53,803 bases of DNA from positions 1 to 53,803 of the forward strand of contig NW_021833818.1 in assembly GCF_006345805.1 (NCBI RefSeq), in the 5' to 3' direction. The position numbers and the translations under genes were made by a program. This DNA comes from Octopus sinensis. Lineage: Eukaryota. The notes under the pieces are model-generated. The model made no database searches, was not told the DNA's origin, and saw only the letters and a list, made by a program, of their open reading frames with translations. Positions 43,812 through 53,489 of this stretch are shown here, piece by piece. Position 1 is the stretch's first letter. Every line of letters starts with the position of its first letter.

Positions 43812-44323
43812 GTGTGGCTGTGTGGTGAGTAGCTTGCTTACCAACCACATGGTTCCGGGTTCGGTCCCACTGCGTGGCATCTTGGGCAAGTGTCTTCTAC
43901 TATAGCCTCGGACCGACTATAAGCCTCGGACCGACTAATAATATAGCCTCGGACCGACTAATAATATAGCCTCGGACCGACTAATAAGCAGCAAAGTACA
44001 GCATGACACTTTTTCTTACGTACATCTGTAACCTAAAATTTGTGAGTGGATTTGGTAGACGGAAACTGAAAGAAGCCCGTCGTATATATGTGTATATATA
44101 TGTATGTGTGTGTATGTTTGTATGTCTGTGTTTGTCCCCCTAGCATTGCTTGACAACCGATGCTGGTGTGTGTTTACGTCCCCGTAACTTAGCGGTTCGG
44201 CAAAAGAGAACCGATAGAATAAGTACTAGGCTTACAAAGAATAAGTCCTGGGGTCGATTTTCTCGACTAAAGGCGTTGCTCCAACATGGCCACAGTCAAA
44301 TGACTGAAACAAGTAAAAGAGTA
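43812..44323 (+). mobile_element. SINE A carrying an internal tandem amplification and a captured 56-bp segment
   Basis: agcctcggaccgacta x4 (43901-43985), then an insert matching 46424-46479. Confidence 0.9.
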
Positions 44324-44485
44324 ATAGGTAATGTGGAAATTAACCCCCTTTTATAAAAGACTATTTCTTCGCGGGAAAGGCTTCTTTAAACGTCTCTCCA
44401 GAAGTTTTAATTATACAAAATTACACAAAATCTCCTATATTTAGTTTTATTACAATTCAGAATAAGATGTTTTTCATGCATACAT

Positions 44486-44779
44486 ACTCTTTTACTCTTT
44501 TACTTGTTTTAGTCATTTGACTGCGGCCATGCTGGAGCACCACCTTTAGTCGAGCAGATCGACCCCGGGACTTATTCTTTGTAAGCCCAGTACTTATTCT
44601 ATCGGTCTCTTTTGCCGAACCGCTAAGTGACGGGGACGTAAACACACTAGCATCGGTTGTCAAGCAATGCTAGCGGGACAAACACAGACACACAAACACA
44701 AACACACACACAACACACCACACACACACACACCACCACACACCCACACACACACATATATATTATATATATAGATATA

Positions 44780-44990: not shown

Positions 44991-45039
<49 letters not shown>

Positions 45040-45193
45040 CGACAGGCTTCTTTCAGTTTCCGTCTACCAAATCCACTCACAAGGCATTGGTCAGCCCGGG
45101 GCTATAGCAGAAGACACTTGCCCAAGATGCCACGCAGTGGGACTGAACCCGGAACCATGTGGTTGGTTAGCAAGCTACTTACCACACAGCCAC
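44486..45193 (-). mobile_element. SINE A with an insertion in its internal (TA)n
   Basis: A halves flank 44815-44998. Confidence 0.9.
44815..44998. mobile_element. (TA)n-inserted fragment ending in an ~86-bp palindrome
   Basis: Arms 44913-44953 and 44955-44998 with a 1-nt centre. Confidence 0.7.
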
Positions 45194-45830
45194 ATATAAA
45201 TTCACCAGCATATGCACATAGATACAGTCAGGCACGCATACAATCATACACACACATACTATGTGTATGTGTGAGCGTGTGTGCGCTTTTGTGCAAGTCT
45301 GTGTATACCCGGAGAAAAGGGTACAGCAAGTCATGCTCTTCACATCGAGGTAACCTTATCCCTTCCATCAATAATGCCCGATAAAATAAATAATAGATTA
45401 GTATTAGTTCTGTTGTCGACATGACAGACAAAATTCTATTGAATGCTGTGTCGCCCTATGACTAAAGGCCAGGACTACAATCAGTAAAACTTTAAGGCCA
45501 CACACGTTGATAATCTCTAGTCGGATAAATCTGGTGCCGTTCTATTATTGTAGTTTCTCCTCGCAAAAGTCAATAATATTAATCTGCTGTCATCAGTTGC
45601 GCTCGGAAGTTGCACTGACGGATCACGATGCAGCATGCGAGAAAACTAAAACTGAGAAACATTGTGTGGTAAGTAGCTTGCTTACCGACCACATGGTTCC
45701 GGGTTCAGTCCCACTGCGTGGTATCTTGGGCAAGTGTCTTCTACTATAGCCTCACGCCGACCAAAGCCTTGTGAGTGGATTTGGTAGATGGAAACTGAAA
45801 GAAGCCCATCATATATATGTATATATATAT

Positions 45831-46119
45831 CAGAAATATTAAATTTCTAAACGGTGGTGGGGTGATAGAATGGTTGTCAATCTAATGGTTGTCAATCTAA
45901 CGTGAACGTGACAGTAGGGGGTTACACCACCGCTGTTTAGCCCTAGGAAGCATCGACGCCTCCTGATGGCTTTGACACATATTTCCTGTGTCCTTATATA
46001 CATTTACGAAGGGAAGACAAACACCCACAGCAGCCAGACCTGCATCTAGAGACACACATGTTTCAGGACCATCGGTCTAGAGTAGCAGACGCGCGCCAGC
46101 CACGGATATCTGTCACGAT
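45831..46119 (-). mobile_element. Small (TA)n-inserted element H3 with hammerhead-like motif
   Basis: ~290 bp of non-SINE sequence with (TA)n on both sides; single copy in the window. Confidence 0.7.
46038..46090 (-). ncRNA. Putative minimal type I hammerhead ribozyme variant (H3)
   Basis: UCUAGA-CCGAUGG-UCCU-GAA-ACA-UGUG-UGU-C-UCUAGA: stem I 6 bp plus CUGC/GCAG extension, stem III 3 bp, GUC triplet; stem II essentially absent. Confidence 0.55.
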
Positions 46120-46154
<35 letters not shown>

Positions 46155-46786
46155 ATATGTTTGTGTGTCTGTGTTTGTCCCCCCAACATCGCGTGACAAC
46201 CGATGTCGGTGTGTTTACGTTCACATAACTTAGCGGTTCGGCAAAAGAGAACCGATAGAATAAGTACTAGGCTTACAAAAATATAAGTCCTGGGAGTCGA
46301 TTTGCTCGACTAAAGGCGGTGCTCCAGCATGGCCGCAGTCAAATGACTGAAACAAGTAAAAGAGTAAAAGAGTAATTCTTCATTTTCTGAAAGTGCATTA
46401 CTTCATACAAACTGATACGAAAAAAGCAGCAAAGTACAGCATGACTCTTTTTCTTGCGTACATCTGTAACCTAAAATTTCCAAACATTGTAAACCCTCTC
46501 TAAAGAAATGAGAATAGAAAATCTGTTGAGTCAGTCGAGCTTGAAATAAAGACCACCATAACGAATTATTGAATGTTCGAAAGGAACGGCATGTTTTTGA
46601 AATTTCACTTTCCACTCGTTAACGGCATAGGCTTTCAAAAAAGTGGTCTTCCTTATCGCCAGAGTAACTATTCTTTGGGGTAAATGTGAATTAAGACATC
46701 GAGATGATAGTGACAGATTACTGTCAGTGAAAATTCCGGATAAAACGGAGACAGAGAACTGCATAAATTGCGAAAAAAAATTGATG

Positions 46787-46896
46787 ATACACAGACCCTG
46801 TAACATTGACAACCCATCTCGTTGCACGGAAAATGGATCATACACAGACCCTGTAACATTGACAACCCATCTCCTTGCACGGAAAATGGATCATAC
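46787..46896 (+). repeat. 53-bp tandem duplication (2 copies)
   Basis: atacacagaccctgtaacattgacaacccatctc(g/c)ttgcacggaaaatggatc x2. Confidence 0.92.
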
Positions 46897-47109
46897 CAGC
46901 AAAAATTCTTTAAAAGCTTCCGAAATGAAACGTTTTTAAATGGAAACTAAAACGCATAACTTCGATTCATTGTCTAGTTTCATTATCATAAAAGTCGATA
47001 ACATACGGAAGCGGTGCTGTGACGATACAAAGTTATATGATTCAAAATATAAGTAAATTCATAGAATACTGAATTTCCATAGGTCCTGCCCCGCTAGTAG
47101 AAATAATAA

Positions 47110-47312
47110 TTCTTTCTGTACCTATAGGCACAGAGGCTGAAATTTTGGTGGAAGGAACTAGTCGATCACATCAAAACAGAATTTTATCGAACCCCTATTG
47201 GATGAAAGGCGCAATTGACCTCGGTGGAATTTGAACTAAGGAACGTAGAAACGGACGAAATGCCACCAAGTATATTGTTCGGCGCGCTAACGATGTTGCC
47301 AGTTCGCTGCCT
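47110..47312 (-). mobile_element. Degraded SINE B, B2 tail
   Basis: aggcacagaggctgaaatttt..ggaatttgaact..gccagttcgctgcc. Confidence 0.75.
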
Positions 47313-47652
47313 GATAAATACAAACAGTAACAATTGTTTGTAATTTAGAGACAAGGTGTGCCAACTGTTTTTAACTTGGACTTCAAGGCTGAAATTTTGA
47401 TGGAATAAATCCATAAATTAAAAGGTAAAACCCGATATTCAGACAGCAATTTGACTGTACTCTTTGTGTACTTCTGTCTCCTTATACACACACACACATA
47501 CACACACGCACGCACATACATATGCACACATAATATATGTGCATATGTATATGTGCGTATGTACGTAGGTAAGTATGTATGCATGTATGTATGTATGCAT
47601 GTATGTATGTATATATGTATATATATATACATATATATATACATATATATAT

Positions 47653-47845
47653 CAGACGCCATGATAGATCGTTAGCCACTACACATATTTTTTTCTCTCC
47701 TTGTTTTCTGTGTCCCTTTCTGTAGAAGAGTGCAGGCTCGAAACGTAAAAGACTTTTTCCATTCCTGAGCGTTATACTAATACTCTGTTTGTTTTTGGTA
47801 CACCACCTGTCTTCGTCTTTCGTTGTTTTTTTCGTAAACTCTCCC
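47653..47845 (+). mobile_element. Small (TA)n-inserted element H1, copy 1
   Basis: Three copies in the window; (TA)n on both sides. Confidence 0.85.
47712..47753 (+). ncRNA. Putative minimal hammerhead variant (H1 copy 1)
   Basis: CUUU-CUGUAGA-A-GAGU-GCAG-GCUC-GAA-ACGU-A-AAAG. Confidence 0.5.
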
Positions 47846-47871
47846 TATATATATTATATACATATATATAT

Positions 47872-47930
<59 letters not shown>

Positions 47931-47942
47931 TATATATAATAC

Positions 47943-47975
<33 letters not shown>

Positions 47976-47980
47976 CATAT

Positions 47981-48026
<46 letters not shown>

Positions 48027-48150
48027 TATATATTATATACATATATATATTATAATATACATATATACATATATACATACAATATAATATATATATATAA
48101 TATATATATATATATATAATATATACATATATCTATATATGATATATAGA
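47846..48150. repeat. (TA)n tract
   Basis: Direct reading. Confidence 0.95.
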
Positions 48151-48151
48151 T

Positions 48152-48306
48152 AAATGAAAGAATGGAGTTGAACGACGAATTAACAAAATTCCTTTATTTT
48201 ATTTTCGACATTGTTTCGATCGAAGGCTGCATTTTCGACTGAATTTGCTACCAGTATTCCGTTAACCGAATTATCCATAAAAGATAATTCACAACACACT
48301 ACTCAA

Positions 48307-48311
<5 letters not shown>
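48152..48311 (-). mobile_element. (TA)n-flanked fragment H4 with the 3' half of a hammerhead-like motif
   Basis: Minus strand tcGAAACaatGTCgaaaataaaaataaa; no CUGANGA found in the retained part. Confidence 0.4.
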
Positions 48312-48359
<48 letters not shown>

Positions 48360-48707
48360 AGCAAAACACCCTCCCCCGTCCAATGGACGGTGCTGAGTTG
48401 TCAAACATTTAAACCAAAGTTTCTCAAAACAACTTGTCCAACCGTTCCATAGGCCTCCCCTTTGAGAAACACCAACTTAACCTAAATTTGAGACACCAGC
48501 AAAAGAAGAAATAAAGATAGACTTTTTTTTTCTAATCCAAAGAATGCTTTATCGATCGCATTCTCACCTGGAATCGATTTTTGTAATTTTTTCAAGACTT
48601 ATCTACGCCCTGATACCGCCGGTATCTACATATGAAATTTGGCCGAATTATTTGAAAATGCTTATAAGATTCTTGCTCAATTCATCCATTGTGTATGTTA
48701 TGTCGCA

Positions 48708-49092
48708 TGGAGGCGCAATGGCCCAGTGGTTAGGGCAGCGGACTCGCGGTCATAGGATCGCGGTTTCGATTCCCAGACCGGGCGTTGTGAGTGTTTATTG
48801 AGCGAAAACACCAAAAAGCTCCACGAGGATCCGGCAGGGGATGGTGGTGATCCCTGCTGTACTCTTTCACCACAACTTTCTCTCACTCTTACTTTCTGTT
48901 TCTGTTGTACCTGTACTTCAAAGGGCCGGCCTTGTCACTCTCTGTGTCACGCTGATTATCCCCGAGAACTACGTTAAGGGTACACGTGTCTGTGGAGTGC
49001 TCAGCCACTTACACGTTAATTTCACGAGCAGGCTGTTCCGTTGATTCGGATCAACCGGAACCCTCGTCGTCGTAACCGACGGAGTGCTTCCA
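48708..49092 (+). mobile_element. SINE C, full length, tail type 2
   Basis: A and B boxes, body, tail ending accgacggagtgcttcca. Confidence 0.92.
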
Positions 49093-49671
49093 CCACTAAC
49101 TGTTCGCTACTCTGACTCTAGTCTGTGCTGTCTGATGTCGTCTAGACTTCTCCCTCTATATCTACGTATTGGGCTAGCCTACTTCATCGTCTGGGGGCGT
49201 CCACACAACAGTATAGTAATTCATATGACATGTATTTGTTACTCTTCCTTTCATGTACAAGACTGAAAAGGGTTGAATCGTAGGTTTATCTAATAGAAAA
49301 CATCTATATTACTATTGTGGCATTATATCCTCTCCGAGTGTCGTCCTCTTGTCCCACAATTGCCCAACTAAAATTACACTATGCAGGTATGGTTGACACT
49401 AAATATGAAATGGGACCTGACAGCAGCTGAAGGGCTGCCTCAGTATTTGACGCAGCTAAACTCTCAAAATCTACAGAATGCCGACAGCCTGGCATCATTA
49501 AGCTGTCCCCCCTACTATGTAGAACATGTATAAATTCAGTCGCCGTGATAGATCGTTAGCCACTACACTTTTTTTAACTCCTTTTTTTTCTCCCTTTTAT
49601 CTTTCTTTTTTTTCTCTCCTTTTTTCTCTCCCCTTTTTTCTCTCCTTGTTTCTCTCCTTGTTTCTTTCTGT

Positions 49672-49713
49672 GTTCCTTTCTGTAGAAGAGCGTAGGCTCG
49701 AAACGTAAAAGAC
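49672..49713 (+). ncRNA. Putative minimal hammerhead variant (H1 copy 2)
   Basis: CUUU-CUGUAGA-A-GAGC-GUAG-GCUC-GAA-ACGU-A-AAAG. Confidence 0.5.
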
Positions 49714-49899
49714 TTTTTCTATTCCTGAGCGTTATACTAATACATCCGTTTGTTTTATACACAACCTGTCTTCGTCTTTTGTTTTTTTCGTAAACTTTCT
49801 CTCTCTCTATATATATATATATATGAGACGCCATGATAGATCGTTAGACACTACACACATTTTATTCTCTCCTCTTTTTCTCTCCTTGTTTTTTTCTGT

Positions 49900-49941
49900 G
49901 TCTCTTTCAGTAGAAGAGCGTAGGCTCGAAACGTTAAAGAC
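49900..49941 (+). ncRNA. Putative minimal hammerhead variant (H1 copy 3)
   Basis: UCUUU-CAGUAGA-A-GAGC-GUAG-GCUC-GAA-ACGU-U-AAAGA. Confidence 0.45.
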
Positions 49942-50231
49942 TTTTTCTATTCCTGGGCGTTATACTAATACATCTGTTTGTTTTGTACACCACCTGTCTT
50001 CGTCTTTTGGTTTGTTTTCTTAAACTCTCCCTATAAATTCAGCTGCTTTCCTAGATGTTGCTTCTTTGTTAAATTATACACGCGGCCTAAACTGAGAAAC
50101 GGAGGACCAAATATTCTCACCAAGAAGCTATATTCAAATTCTGTTTGCTCCTGTTTGCTCTACACCTGAAGGTATAGATATGGAATTTCAGCTACGATTC
50201 TTTAAGTAATGGAAAGTCGATTGAATCCGTC

Positions 50232-50475
50232 ACACACACACACACACACACACACACCACACACACACACACACACACACTCATACATGTAAATCACCAA
50301 GACTACAGATACACATCCATACGTACACACAATCATGCGTACACACATACGTACATACATACATACATACATACATACATACATACATACATACATACAT
50401 ACATGCATACATGTGTGTGTGTGTGCGTGTATGAGTTAATGTGTGTGTGTGTGCGTGTGTGCGGGTGTGTGTGTT
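50232..50475. repeat. (CA)n/(ACAT)n/(TG)n microsatellites
   Basis: Direct reading. Confidence 0.9.
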
Positions 50476-50811
50476 GCGTCTGCATTGTAAAGCTGTTTTT
50501 TTTTTTTTCTTATTTTATTTCGCCTTCGGGAGATATGAAACAAATGGTTTTCAACGGTGAGACTTGAAGCAGATAAAGCTTCATCTACTTAAAGCGATTT
50601 ATTTCATATCTTGCGAAGTTTGTAAAAACAAAATTTTAAAATTACTTAAAATGCAAACAATCATACAACTGTTGCTCGTAAGAACAAATCTTTAAAAATG
50701 GATACAGAAAAACCCAAGATTAATATTTGTACAATGTTAACGTATCTCTTATGTTCAAAGAAGATAAGGGTTTCGGATTTTAAGGGCAACCTTCGTGCAT
50801 TTTCTATCCAA

Positions 50812-50975
50812 GGTGTTGATGTTGGTGTGTTTACGTCTCCGTAACTTAGCAGTTTGGCAACAGAAACCGATATAAGTACTAGACCCTAATGGAAAAACCT
50901 GATTCGTCCCACTAAAATCCTTCCAGACGGTGACCTCACCCTGGCCACCGGGTTACGATTGAAACACGTAAAAGT
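50812..50975 (+). mobile_element. Degraded SINE A 3' half
   Basis: gatgttggtgtgtttacgtctccgtaacttagcagtttggcaa..gaaacacgtaaaag. Confidence 0.65.
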
Positions 50976-51021
50976 TAGAGCAGAGTCATTCAAACTGAGG
51001 TTGCTGTAATTGTGATATTGA

Positions 51022-51236
51022 ATTCAAATTTTGGCACAAGGCCAGCAATTTCGGAGGAGGGGGTTAAGTCGATTACATTGACCCAGTATTCAGCTGGTAC
51101 TTATTTTATCGACCGTGAAAAAAATGAAAGGCAAAGCGGACATCGGCGGAATTTGAACTCAGAAAACGAAGACAGACGAAATGCCGCTAAGCCTTTAGCC
51201 CGGCGCTTTAACGATTCTACCATCTGCCTCCTCGGC
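51022..51236 (-). mobile_element. SINE B monomer, B2 tail
   Basis: Reverse copy. Confidence 0.8.
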
Positions 51237-51304
51237 GTAATAGTGATATCAAACTTGCGTAGTTAGCTTACGGCTGTTGCAATAGCAGTAGCATCATCAA
51301 CAAC

Positions 51305-51377
51305 AGTAGTAGTAGTAGTAGTAGTAGCGATGGTGTTAGTGATGGTGGTAGTAGTGGTGGTGGTGGTGGTGGTGATT

Positions 51378-51412
<35 letters not shown>

Positions 51413-51756
51413 GGTGGTGGTGGTGATGATGGTGATTGTAGTAGTAGTGGTGGTGGTAGTATAGTAGTAGTGGTGGTGGTATAGTAGTAGTAGTAGTGGT
51501 GGGTGGTTGGTGATGATGGTGATTGTAGTAGTAGTGGTGTTTGTAGTAGTAGTAGTAGTGGTGGTGGTGTTGGTGTGGTGGTAGTAGTGTGGTGGTGGTG
51601 GTGGTGGTGGTGGTGGTGGTTATGTTAGTAGTAGTGGTGTGGTGGGTGGTGGGTGGTGATTGTAGTGTAGTGGTGGTGGTGGTGTGGTGGTGGTTTGTAG
51701 TGTGTGGTGGTGGTGGTGGTGGTGGTAGTAGTGGTGGGTAGTGGGGGGGGTGTGAT

Positions 51757-51792
<36 letters not shown>

Positions 51793-52180
51793 TGGGTGGT
51801 GGTGGTGATGATGGTGATTGTAGTATTAGTGTGGTTTTGTATAGTAGTAGTAGTAGTAAGTAGTGGTTGGTGGTGTGGTGGTGGTGGTGGTGGTAGTAGT
51901 GGTGGTGTGTGGTGGGTGGTGGTGGTGGGTGATTGTAGTAGTAGTGGTGGTGGTGTGGTGATGATGGTGATTGTAGTAGTAGTGGTGGTTGTAGTAGTAG
52001 TAGTAGTGGTGGTGGTTGGTGGGGGTGTGGTAGTAGTGGTGGTTGGTGGTGTGTGTGGTGGGTGGTGTGGATTGTAGTATTAGTGGTGGTGGTGGTGGTG
52101 GTGGTGGTGGTGTGGTGGTGGTTGTAGTAGTAGTGGTGGTGGTGGTGGTGGTGGTGGTAGTAGTGGTGGTGGTGGTGATT

Positions 52181-52218
<38 letters not shown>

Positions 52219-52261
52219 GGTGGTGGTGGTGATGATGGTGATTGTAGTAGTAGTGGTGGTT

Positions 52262-52296
<35 letters not shown>

Positions 52297-52312
52297 GGTG
52301 GTGGTGGTGATT

Positions 52313-52347
<35 letters not shown>

Positions 52348-52486
52348 GGTGGTGGTGGTGGTGGTGGTGGTAGTAGTGGTGGTGGTGGTGATTGTAGTAG
52401 TAGTGGTGGTGGTAGTAGTAGTGGTGGTGGTGGTGGTGGTAGTGGTGGTGGTGGTGATGATGGTGATTGTAGTAGTAGTGGTGATT

Positions 52487-52521
<35 letters not shown>

Positions 52522-52529
52522 GGTGGTAC

Positions 52530-52563
<34 letters not shown>
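51305..52563 (+). repeat. (GTG)n/(GTA)n compound tract
   Basis: Direct reading; source of the poly-V ORFs. Confidence 0.95.
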
Positions 52564-52564
<1 letters not shown>

Positions 52565-52697
52565 ACTATGTAAATAAGTAGGTATGCGGCACTAGGAACT
52601 GAAAATTAATCGGATCTTTCCGTCAGCCAGGAAGTTTGTCAAGTAAATTTTACTGCTGGGGGATCCGATCAATTCTAAGTCGGTGAGCGAGGAGATT

Positions 52698-52925
52698 TAC
52701 TACTACTACTCCTACAACTACCACCACCACCGCCACTACTACTACTACTACCACCACCACCACCACCACACTACTACTACCACCTCCACCACCCCCACCA
52801 CCACTACTACTACTATACTACTACTACTACTACAACTACTACTACTACCCACCACTACTACTACTAATACCACCACCACCACTACTACTACAACCACTAC
52901 TACTACAACTACTACTCTACCCACC

Positions 52926-52958
<33 letters not shown>

Positions 52959-53122
52959 GCTATTACTACTACCCCACCACCACCCCCACAACCCTACCAC
53001 TACCACCACCCACCCACCACCATCTCCACACCACCCCTACTAACTACTACTACTACTACTATTCTAATACTACTACTACTTCTACTATTACTACTACTAC
53101 TACTGCTGCTGCTACTACTACT
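52698..53122 (+). repeat. (CAC)n/(TAC)n compound tract
   Basis: Direct reading; complementary in composition to 51305-52563. Confidence 0.95.
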
Positions 53123-53489
53123 TACCAATGCTGGTGCTGACAATTGCTATCTTAACTCTCGACTGCGAATAATTCCGTTCCACGCACACTCCACCAATAA
53201 AGATTAGGCAATAATACATTTAAAACACACACGACGTTTATCGAAACGGGAAGAATCACATTAACAATGTCTCGTTTTTCTCACCAGAAAGCTGCTCTTA
53301 CGGTTCAGGCGGTTACTCACAAAGCATGAAACGAGATCTTCTTTTCACATTCATTTTTTCTCCCCTCTCTCTCTCTGTTGGTACGACGTGTTTGGGGCAG
53401 ACATTTTGTGCTTTTTTCTTCTTTATTTTGGCGCAAGGAAGAAAAAATAGCAAATATAGGGATTTTAGGTTTAACTTACTTTTTTTTTT

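Follow-up and report, generated by a model that had tools for sequence, protein, structure and literature searches.

Introduction

The pLTRs of Penelope-like elements (PLEs) carry hammerhead motifs, and both the cleavage of these motifs as dimers and the derivation of retrozymes from pLTRs have been published (PMC4209133; PMC6765202; PMC7229834; bioRxiv 10.64898/2026.07.22.740005). RNA circles arising from cleavage at pLTR motifs have already been proposed, and minimal PLE hammerheads are described as weak cleavers even with A at core position 6 (A6) (PMC4209133). The published descriptor demands 'cuganga', and all 44 alignment rows examined have A6; because the descriptor requires CUGANGA, it would miss a family with U at this position (U6). 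A natural substitution confined to position 6 of the core is described for the phage Bcep176 hammerhead (A6C), a single phage locus that cleaves slowly (kobs below 0.1 per min) and prefers Mn; in another hammerhead the A6C change gave 3.6e-6 vs 0.3 per min at 0.3 mM Mg, with Mn activity kept (PMC3088659, PMC7151607). Mutations in the CUGA turn are reported to have low activity in pairwise mutagenesis (PMC9901934). An octopus repeat annotation, in the passages considered, names Penelope and no ribozyme (PMC13282606).

Here we describe a hammerhead-like motif from a 53,803-nt stretch of the Octopus sinensis genome (the window; G000:C10289, where G000 denotes the source assembly of 2.72 Gb). What is new here is a fixed U6 core in an active PLE family. 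Our literature search returned no report of a U6 hammerhead family; Lunse et al. 2017, said to contain many PLE hammerhead variants, may hold U6 rows.

The motif resembles the minimal type I hammerheads described for metazoan PLE pLTRs in its pLTR position, its short stem I and its thousands of solo copies, and also in the extra base after A9 (between positions 9 and 10.1), the G10.1-C11.1 pair closing stem II and the GAAA-C-G-U-H palindromic stem III (PMC4209133). The palindrome lies at 15.2-16.2 and is accompanied by an NUH triplet. Unlike the published PLE examples, the core here is CUGUNGA instead of CUGANGA, with U6 throughout the family and U4A in addition in one unit of the window (unit B), and stem II has 4 bp as opposed to 7-8 bp in the schistosome examples. 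Compared with the Neptune-type EN+ PLEs of PMC8557442, as described there, the element differs structurally in nothing but the U6 core. The Bcep176 hammerhead shares a natural change at position 6 but has C, not U, at one phage locus with measured activity, whereas the present family has ~20,000 copies in an animal retroelement. Metazoan non-LTR retrozymes are described as small type I tandem repeats and kin of PLE pLTRs (PMC7229834; bioRxiv 10.64898/2026.07.22.740005); five arrays elsewhere in the assembly (L349, L313-L316) resemble them, whereas the pair of units in the window is inhomogeneous, has no defined monomer, bears a minimal altered core and belongs to a coding family.

Results

Three copies of the repeat in the window

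A ~200-nt repeat was present in three copies in the window, and a 22-nt motif matched three times against none expected. The cores begin at 47720, 49680 and 49908, the last two separated by 228 nt. The features of the locus are as follows.

47653..47845, + strand: third copy, solo, truncated, within (TA)n; core at 47720
49529..49539, + strand: 5' copy of the 11-bp direct repeat; begins TATA; likely target-site duplication; flank single-copy in the source assembly
49540..49799, + strand: unit A, almost certainly the 5'-truncated 3' end (pLTR) of a PLE, apparently Neptune-type, CUGUAGA subfamily; 78-79% identical to the pLTR of full-length L122
49676..49711, + strand: unit A minimal hammerhead-like motif; predicted cut after 49707
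49800..49825, + strand: (TC)n(TA)n spacer between units A and B
49826..50031, + strand: unit B, a second 5'-truncated 3' end of the same probable PLE subfamily as unit A
49904..49939, + strand: unit B motif, CAGUAGA (U4A plus U6), GUU triplet; predicted cut after 49935
50032..50042, + strand: 3' copy of the 11-bp direct repeat, sharing its TATA with the TA-run end of the element

The original prediction, made from the letters of the window, had described three copies, a direct repeat of 11 bp and a spacing of 228 nt between motifs, all of which were recovered by motif matching and an exact-repeat search; stem I, stem II, the extra A, the ACGU palindrome and the GUA and GUU triplets were also as it had described them. 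It had the two units joined by (TA)n; a TA-run spacer does join them, and is in fact (TC)n(TA)n. Unit A starts at the 5'-end hotspot of the family and has an expanded pyrimidine tract. Its motif comprises stem I, the core CUGUAGA (U6), the extra A, a 4-bp stem II, GAAA, the ACGU palindrome and a GUA triplet. In the copy at 47.7 kb, stem II contains a U·G pair that arises from a C-to-T change at a CpG and is therefore no evidence of selection.

An Rfam scan of positions 46000-52000 matched no hammerhead model up to E 10 and gave only microsatellite-driven miRNA hits. The folding energy of the motif was not significant relative to shuffled sequences (z -0.9 to +1.05), nor was that of the pair, and no coding remnant was found in the window. 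The locus is ordinary retroelement (PLE) debris. Elsewhere in the window, a long (GGT/AGT)n tract lies opposite a (TAC/CAC)n tract at 51228-53130, forming an imperfect inverted repeat ~400-640 nt apart, and the regions 45021-45830, 44210-44606 and 48704-49092 hold inverted-repeat elements with arms of 168 and 125 nt plus a SINE-like repeat. The sequence of this SINE-like repeat recurs in several of the loci examined.

The units as ends of a Penelope-like element

A 27-nt motif pattern had 13,792 exact matches in the assembly (control 0), and a 19-mer near the 3' end had 17,835, compared with 251 5'-UTR starts. Copies of the family share a fixed 3' end running into (TA)n and have staggered 5' ends; inverted copies also occur (L131, L075). 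Upstream of the unit, the longer copies contain a low-complexity 3' UTR and, before it, a GIY-YIG open reading frame on the sense strand, in which a CxxxxCxxC linker, agreeing with the CX2-5CxxC linker that EN+ PLEs have between RT and EN, precedes a YIGQT motif. At all of the best 30 endonuclease loci (one being the source of the query) the motif lay 943-1239 nt downstream on the same strand, with the core CUGUUGA intact in 28, one deletion and one insertion accounting for the other two. The link of this Penelope-type minimal hammerhead architecture to PLEs, which had been proposed from the window, is thereby upheld.

The motif was found in both pLTRs, 4.4-4.5 kb apart, at 5 of 12 long-ORF loci examined, and pLTR length was variable. 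At one of these loci, L122, pLTRs of ~780 nt surround an ORF of over 1000 aa that matches RVT_1 (E 1.3e-7) and, weakly and below the cut-off, GIY-YIG (E 0.008); relatives of this ORF in public collections have the same domains. L122 represents a sister of the window's CUGUAGA subfamily, which is ~77-80% identical to the last ~200 nt of the L122 pLTR and has its own pLTR-to-5'-UTR junction. Of 30 copies selected from the window's subfamily because their upstream homology was long, 13 run into frameshifted RT/EN remains, the best stretches of which are 61-93% identical. The unit was thus found as the terminal repeat of an RT/GIY-YIG ORF, a check that the original prediction had named, both at long-ORF loci (5/12) and among long copies (13/30). 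L122 and 149 other loci form a very young PLE subfamily, in which 150 of 150 scored endonuclease matches are 95-100% identical and open frames reach 1009 aa. At 2920-2970 of L122, the 5' UTR contains two antisense words that we take to resemble strong splice donors.

The features listed for Neptune-type EN+ PLEs in PMC8557442 fit the unit. We regard it as almost certain that the units are 5'-truncated 3' ends (pLTR) of a PLE; linker and domain order, in place of a tree, would put this PLE in the Neptune clade.

Conservation of the U6 core

U at position 6, seen beforehand in the three copies of the window, proved to be a family-wide trait. With one pattern applied to the whole assembly, U6 had 19,572 matches and A6 609 (controls 1 and 0), and among the 13,792 matches to the exact stem II of the family only 140 had A6. 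Of the 30 A6 copies inspected, most are similar to U6 subfamilies, and they give the impression of sporadic back-mutations. The family, which has ~20,000 copies, is fixed for U6, its intact young copies included.

We then considered 88 copies chosen by the 3' 19-mer only, of which 68 reached the motif and 20 were dropped as truncated or too degenerate. Position 6 was U in 65 of these 68 copies chosen without the motif. Polymorphic columns numbered 2 of 37 in the motif and 31 of 75 in the flanks (Fisher p 5e-5), or 12 of 46 when the motif was compared with downstream columns alone (p 0.017). The two variable motif positions were N7, with all four bases, and H17 (A 40, U 26, C 1, G 0, gap 1). 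These are the two positions that are free in hammerheads. We counted the deficit of polymorphic columns for selection on the motif. N7 and H17 were variable too in contigs from four public runs with four organism labels, in a table that omitted three rows. When 254 copies were clustered on their flanks alone, eight groups of three or more were obtained, 12-32% apart. The majority base at position 6 was U in all eight of these subfamilies, the youngest included, and the N7 majorities were A, U, G and C. Neither loop II nor the extra A varied.

Other repeat families in the assembly have an A6 core at the same spacing (L358, L363, L364, L369, L377; L357, L360-L362, L366, L370, L371). These are sister and older families, some with a compensated stem II and a GUC triplet; a search of them for an RT match gave only L367, weak and on the opposite strand. 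Stems I and II covaried across a set of 13 related rows, consisting of the two window units, L122 and 10 rows hand-picked by eye from 21 A6 loci, and none of 500 shuffles reached the score.

Origin of the pair of units

The direct repeat TATAAATTCAG occurs exactly twice in the window, at 49529 and 50032, and none of 100 shuffles gave two occurrences. It is plausibly a true target-site duplication, with the proviso that the first four bases of the 3' copy are also the element's own TA-run end. A search of the source assembly for an empty site of the insertion found none, the flank being single-copy. Across the family, a target-site duplication was scored in 11 of 60 copies (control mean 7.15, maximum 14) and, under a stricter first criterion, in 7 of 118 (control 3.95); four loci (L005, L008, L236, L258) have clear flanking repeats of ~10-14 nt that start with TATA.

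Units A and B show 9 differences over 117 sites, and 9 and 8 over 116 relative to the solo copy, similar to the median of 6.1% for 66 random pairs from the subfamily; units of true arrays differ at 0-3 of ~120 sites. On its own this divergence does not decide the matter, since two units copied long ago from one template would have diverged too. In true pLTR tandems the TA run leads into a 5'-UTR start, which is missing from the spacer between A and B. A single direct repeat without a middle copy fits one insertion event, and both units were likely inserted together at a TATA target. The pair may have formed through a template switch across TA runs, or two insertions lying next to each other may have been transcribed into one read-through RNA that was then copied. 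Had A and B been inserted one after the other at this unique site, a third 11-mer would be expected between them; there is none, and we rejected this route.

In the hammerhead dimer model, each core of a crossed dimer cuts the triplet of its partner. Two cuts are needed for a 228-nt monomer, and one of them would consequently fall to the doubly altered core of unit B. Release of such a monomer from this locus is unlikely, because the units are as divergent as unrelated copies are and U4A is present in one; the 228-nt spacing also takes in a microsatellite.

Tandem arrays elsewhere in the assembly

Regular head-to-tail arrays with 3-5 motifs were observed at L349 (G000:C4:78780500-78782200), L313, L314, L315 and L316. 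Their units, of 259, ~510, 328-343, ~450 and ~605 nt, consist of the pLTR end plus the 5'-UTR start. Four of the arrays start mid-unit and all end at or near the normal 3' end of the element; the junction is different in each array, lies away from the predicted cut in every case and in three falls at about -84. These arrays resemble newborn retrozymes, or the products of rolling copying on small circles, and short arrays suggest repeated copying round small templates. As their junctions lie off the cut, and the one that was checked is confined to a single locus, the arrays are not evidence of ribozyme action. We also looked for a parent locus of the L349 junction, and the four matches to this junction all lay within L349. 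Back-splicing was considered as a source of the junctions, and no GT donor followed the junctions inspected by eye in L122. In addition, L018 (G000:C17, about 3507500-3508200) is a trimer whose units come from the window's subfamily, have the same 5' start, are separated by (TACA)n spacers and differ at 0-3 of 117 sites.

5' ends and predicted folds

No pile-up of 5' ends was found at the predicted cut: 3 of 88 solo copies start there, and of 59 copies with a 5'-UTR start none begins there by alignment (one possibly does by eye). By contrast, 23 of the 88 5' ends fall at -112 to -99 from the predicted cut and only 1 between -113 and -200. The templates were therefore mostly uncut RNA. The pile-up is family-wide, coincides in the window with 49540 and 49826, and is likely the RNA 5' end; it sits at a CA(G/T)TC-like word which we take to resemble an initiator. 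Among 41 young-family rows with a 5'-UTR start (array units included), 27 extend upstream past -120, which needs a circular template or a template jump.

Pairing between U6 and A15.1 was predicted with a probability of 0.42-0.98 in six U6 copies and of 0 in six A6 copies. This pair would hide the palindrome needed for dimers and so counts against activity. The predicted hammerhead dimer lay 8-22 kcal/mol above the minimum in all 12 copies, A6 ones included. Nothing in a hammerhead calls for loop II and the extra A to be invariant, and their invariance was likewise counted against activity.

Discussion

We propose that the element is transcribed from a start within the pLTR, ~110 nt upstream of the predicted cut, as has been described for Penelope, the transcript of which starts in its pLTR (PMC2377424). 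Reverse transcription would be primed on genomic TA targets at the TA run of the element, which lies ~110 nt downstream of the cut; the enzyme would copy back to the RNA 5' end or fall off earlier, giving units of ~200-220 nt. With a start near -110 and priming near +110, the abundant ~220-nt unit needs no separate non-autonomous family. Rare cleavage at both pLTR motifs of the full-length RNA could release a unit-length circle, and more-than-unit copying of this circle would rebuild a promoter-bearing pLTR, keeping the motif under selection. Whether the U6 hammerhead-shaped RNA still cuts itself slowly we judge, from sequence and predicted folds, to be an evenly balanced question. Against cleavage stand the low rates published for changes at A6 and in the CUGA turn, and the weakness of minimal PLE hammerheads; the slow cleavage of the natural A6C hammerhead speaks for it. 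We put about equal weight for and against the reading as a whole, namely that the window holds truncated PLE ends inserted in one event, from a family in which a slow, dimer-dependent U6 ribozyme would act in full-length transcripts and not at this locus.

One alternative is that the motif is a hammerhead that has lost catalysis and been retained as a hairpin or a protein-binding signal such as an RT recognition or promoter-proximal element, with U6 closing the junction into a continuous bulged stem. We consider this possible, though on the doubtful side. The predicted folds agree with it, in that copies with U6 gain U4·G16.2, G5-C15.2 and U6-A15.1 pairs, as do the invariant loop II, the scarcity of ends at the predicted cut and the absence of any reversion to A6 among the sampled subfamilies; moreover, Naiad PLEs are described as having spread without canonical hammerheads (PMC8557442). 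A hairpin of this kind, however, has no need of C3, U16.1 or the exclusion of G at H17, all of which are retained, and the sole free positions are the N7 and H17 of a hammerhead. It is much less probable that the motif is both dead and neutral and owes its sameness to hitch-hiking through a few master copies. Master lineages are indeed few, some flank blocks are well conserved too, and several loci were selected by the motif itself; yet the set chosen without the motif has 35 of 37 columns fixed across subfamilies whose flanks differ by 12-32%, and the current counts already suggest a motif substitution rate below that of the flanks.

The original prediction had instead inferred a non-autonomous PLE-dependent or retrozyme family that could release a monomer of ~228 nt, possibly circular. 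One direct repeat does enclose both units, a size of ~210 nt is common to many copies, and regular short arrays across the motif occur elsewhere in the assembly. A separate retrozyme family of this kind is nevertheless not supported, and we now think it highly improbable. The copies grade continuously into the PLE ORF and form no separate non-coding family, and the window units are not homogeneous: their 5' starts and lengths differ, and their 9 differences in 117 sites are what unrelated copies show, although a pair copied long ago from a single template would look much the same. The U4A change in unit B and the microsatellite within the spacing count against it too, as does the occurrence of the single array junction checked (L349) at one locus only.

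The most far-reaching reading is a recently active PLE built on a natural A6U ribozyme that is slow and self-locking, with rare dimer cuts, circles that rebuild the pLTR, and ever-new retrozyme-like arrays. We offer it tentatively and would not be surprised to see it fail. If it is true, each new retrozyme-like array would be born with its own junction, the ribozyme would be invisible to published searches, and PLE families reported without hammerheads may hide similar core variants. The natural A6 copies on the same subfamily backgrounds provide ready matched controls. In this family a supposedly invariant base changed and expansion through at least eight subfamilies followed, the rest of the motif staying fixed apart from N7 and H17. 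Either A6U is an active natural core, in which case the hammerhead consensus would be wider and descriptor searches would miss whole families, or this PLE needs the fold but not the cut.
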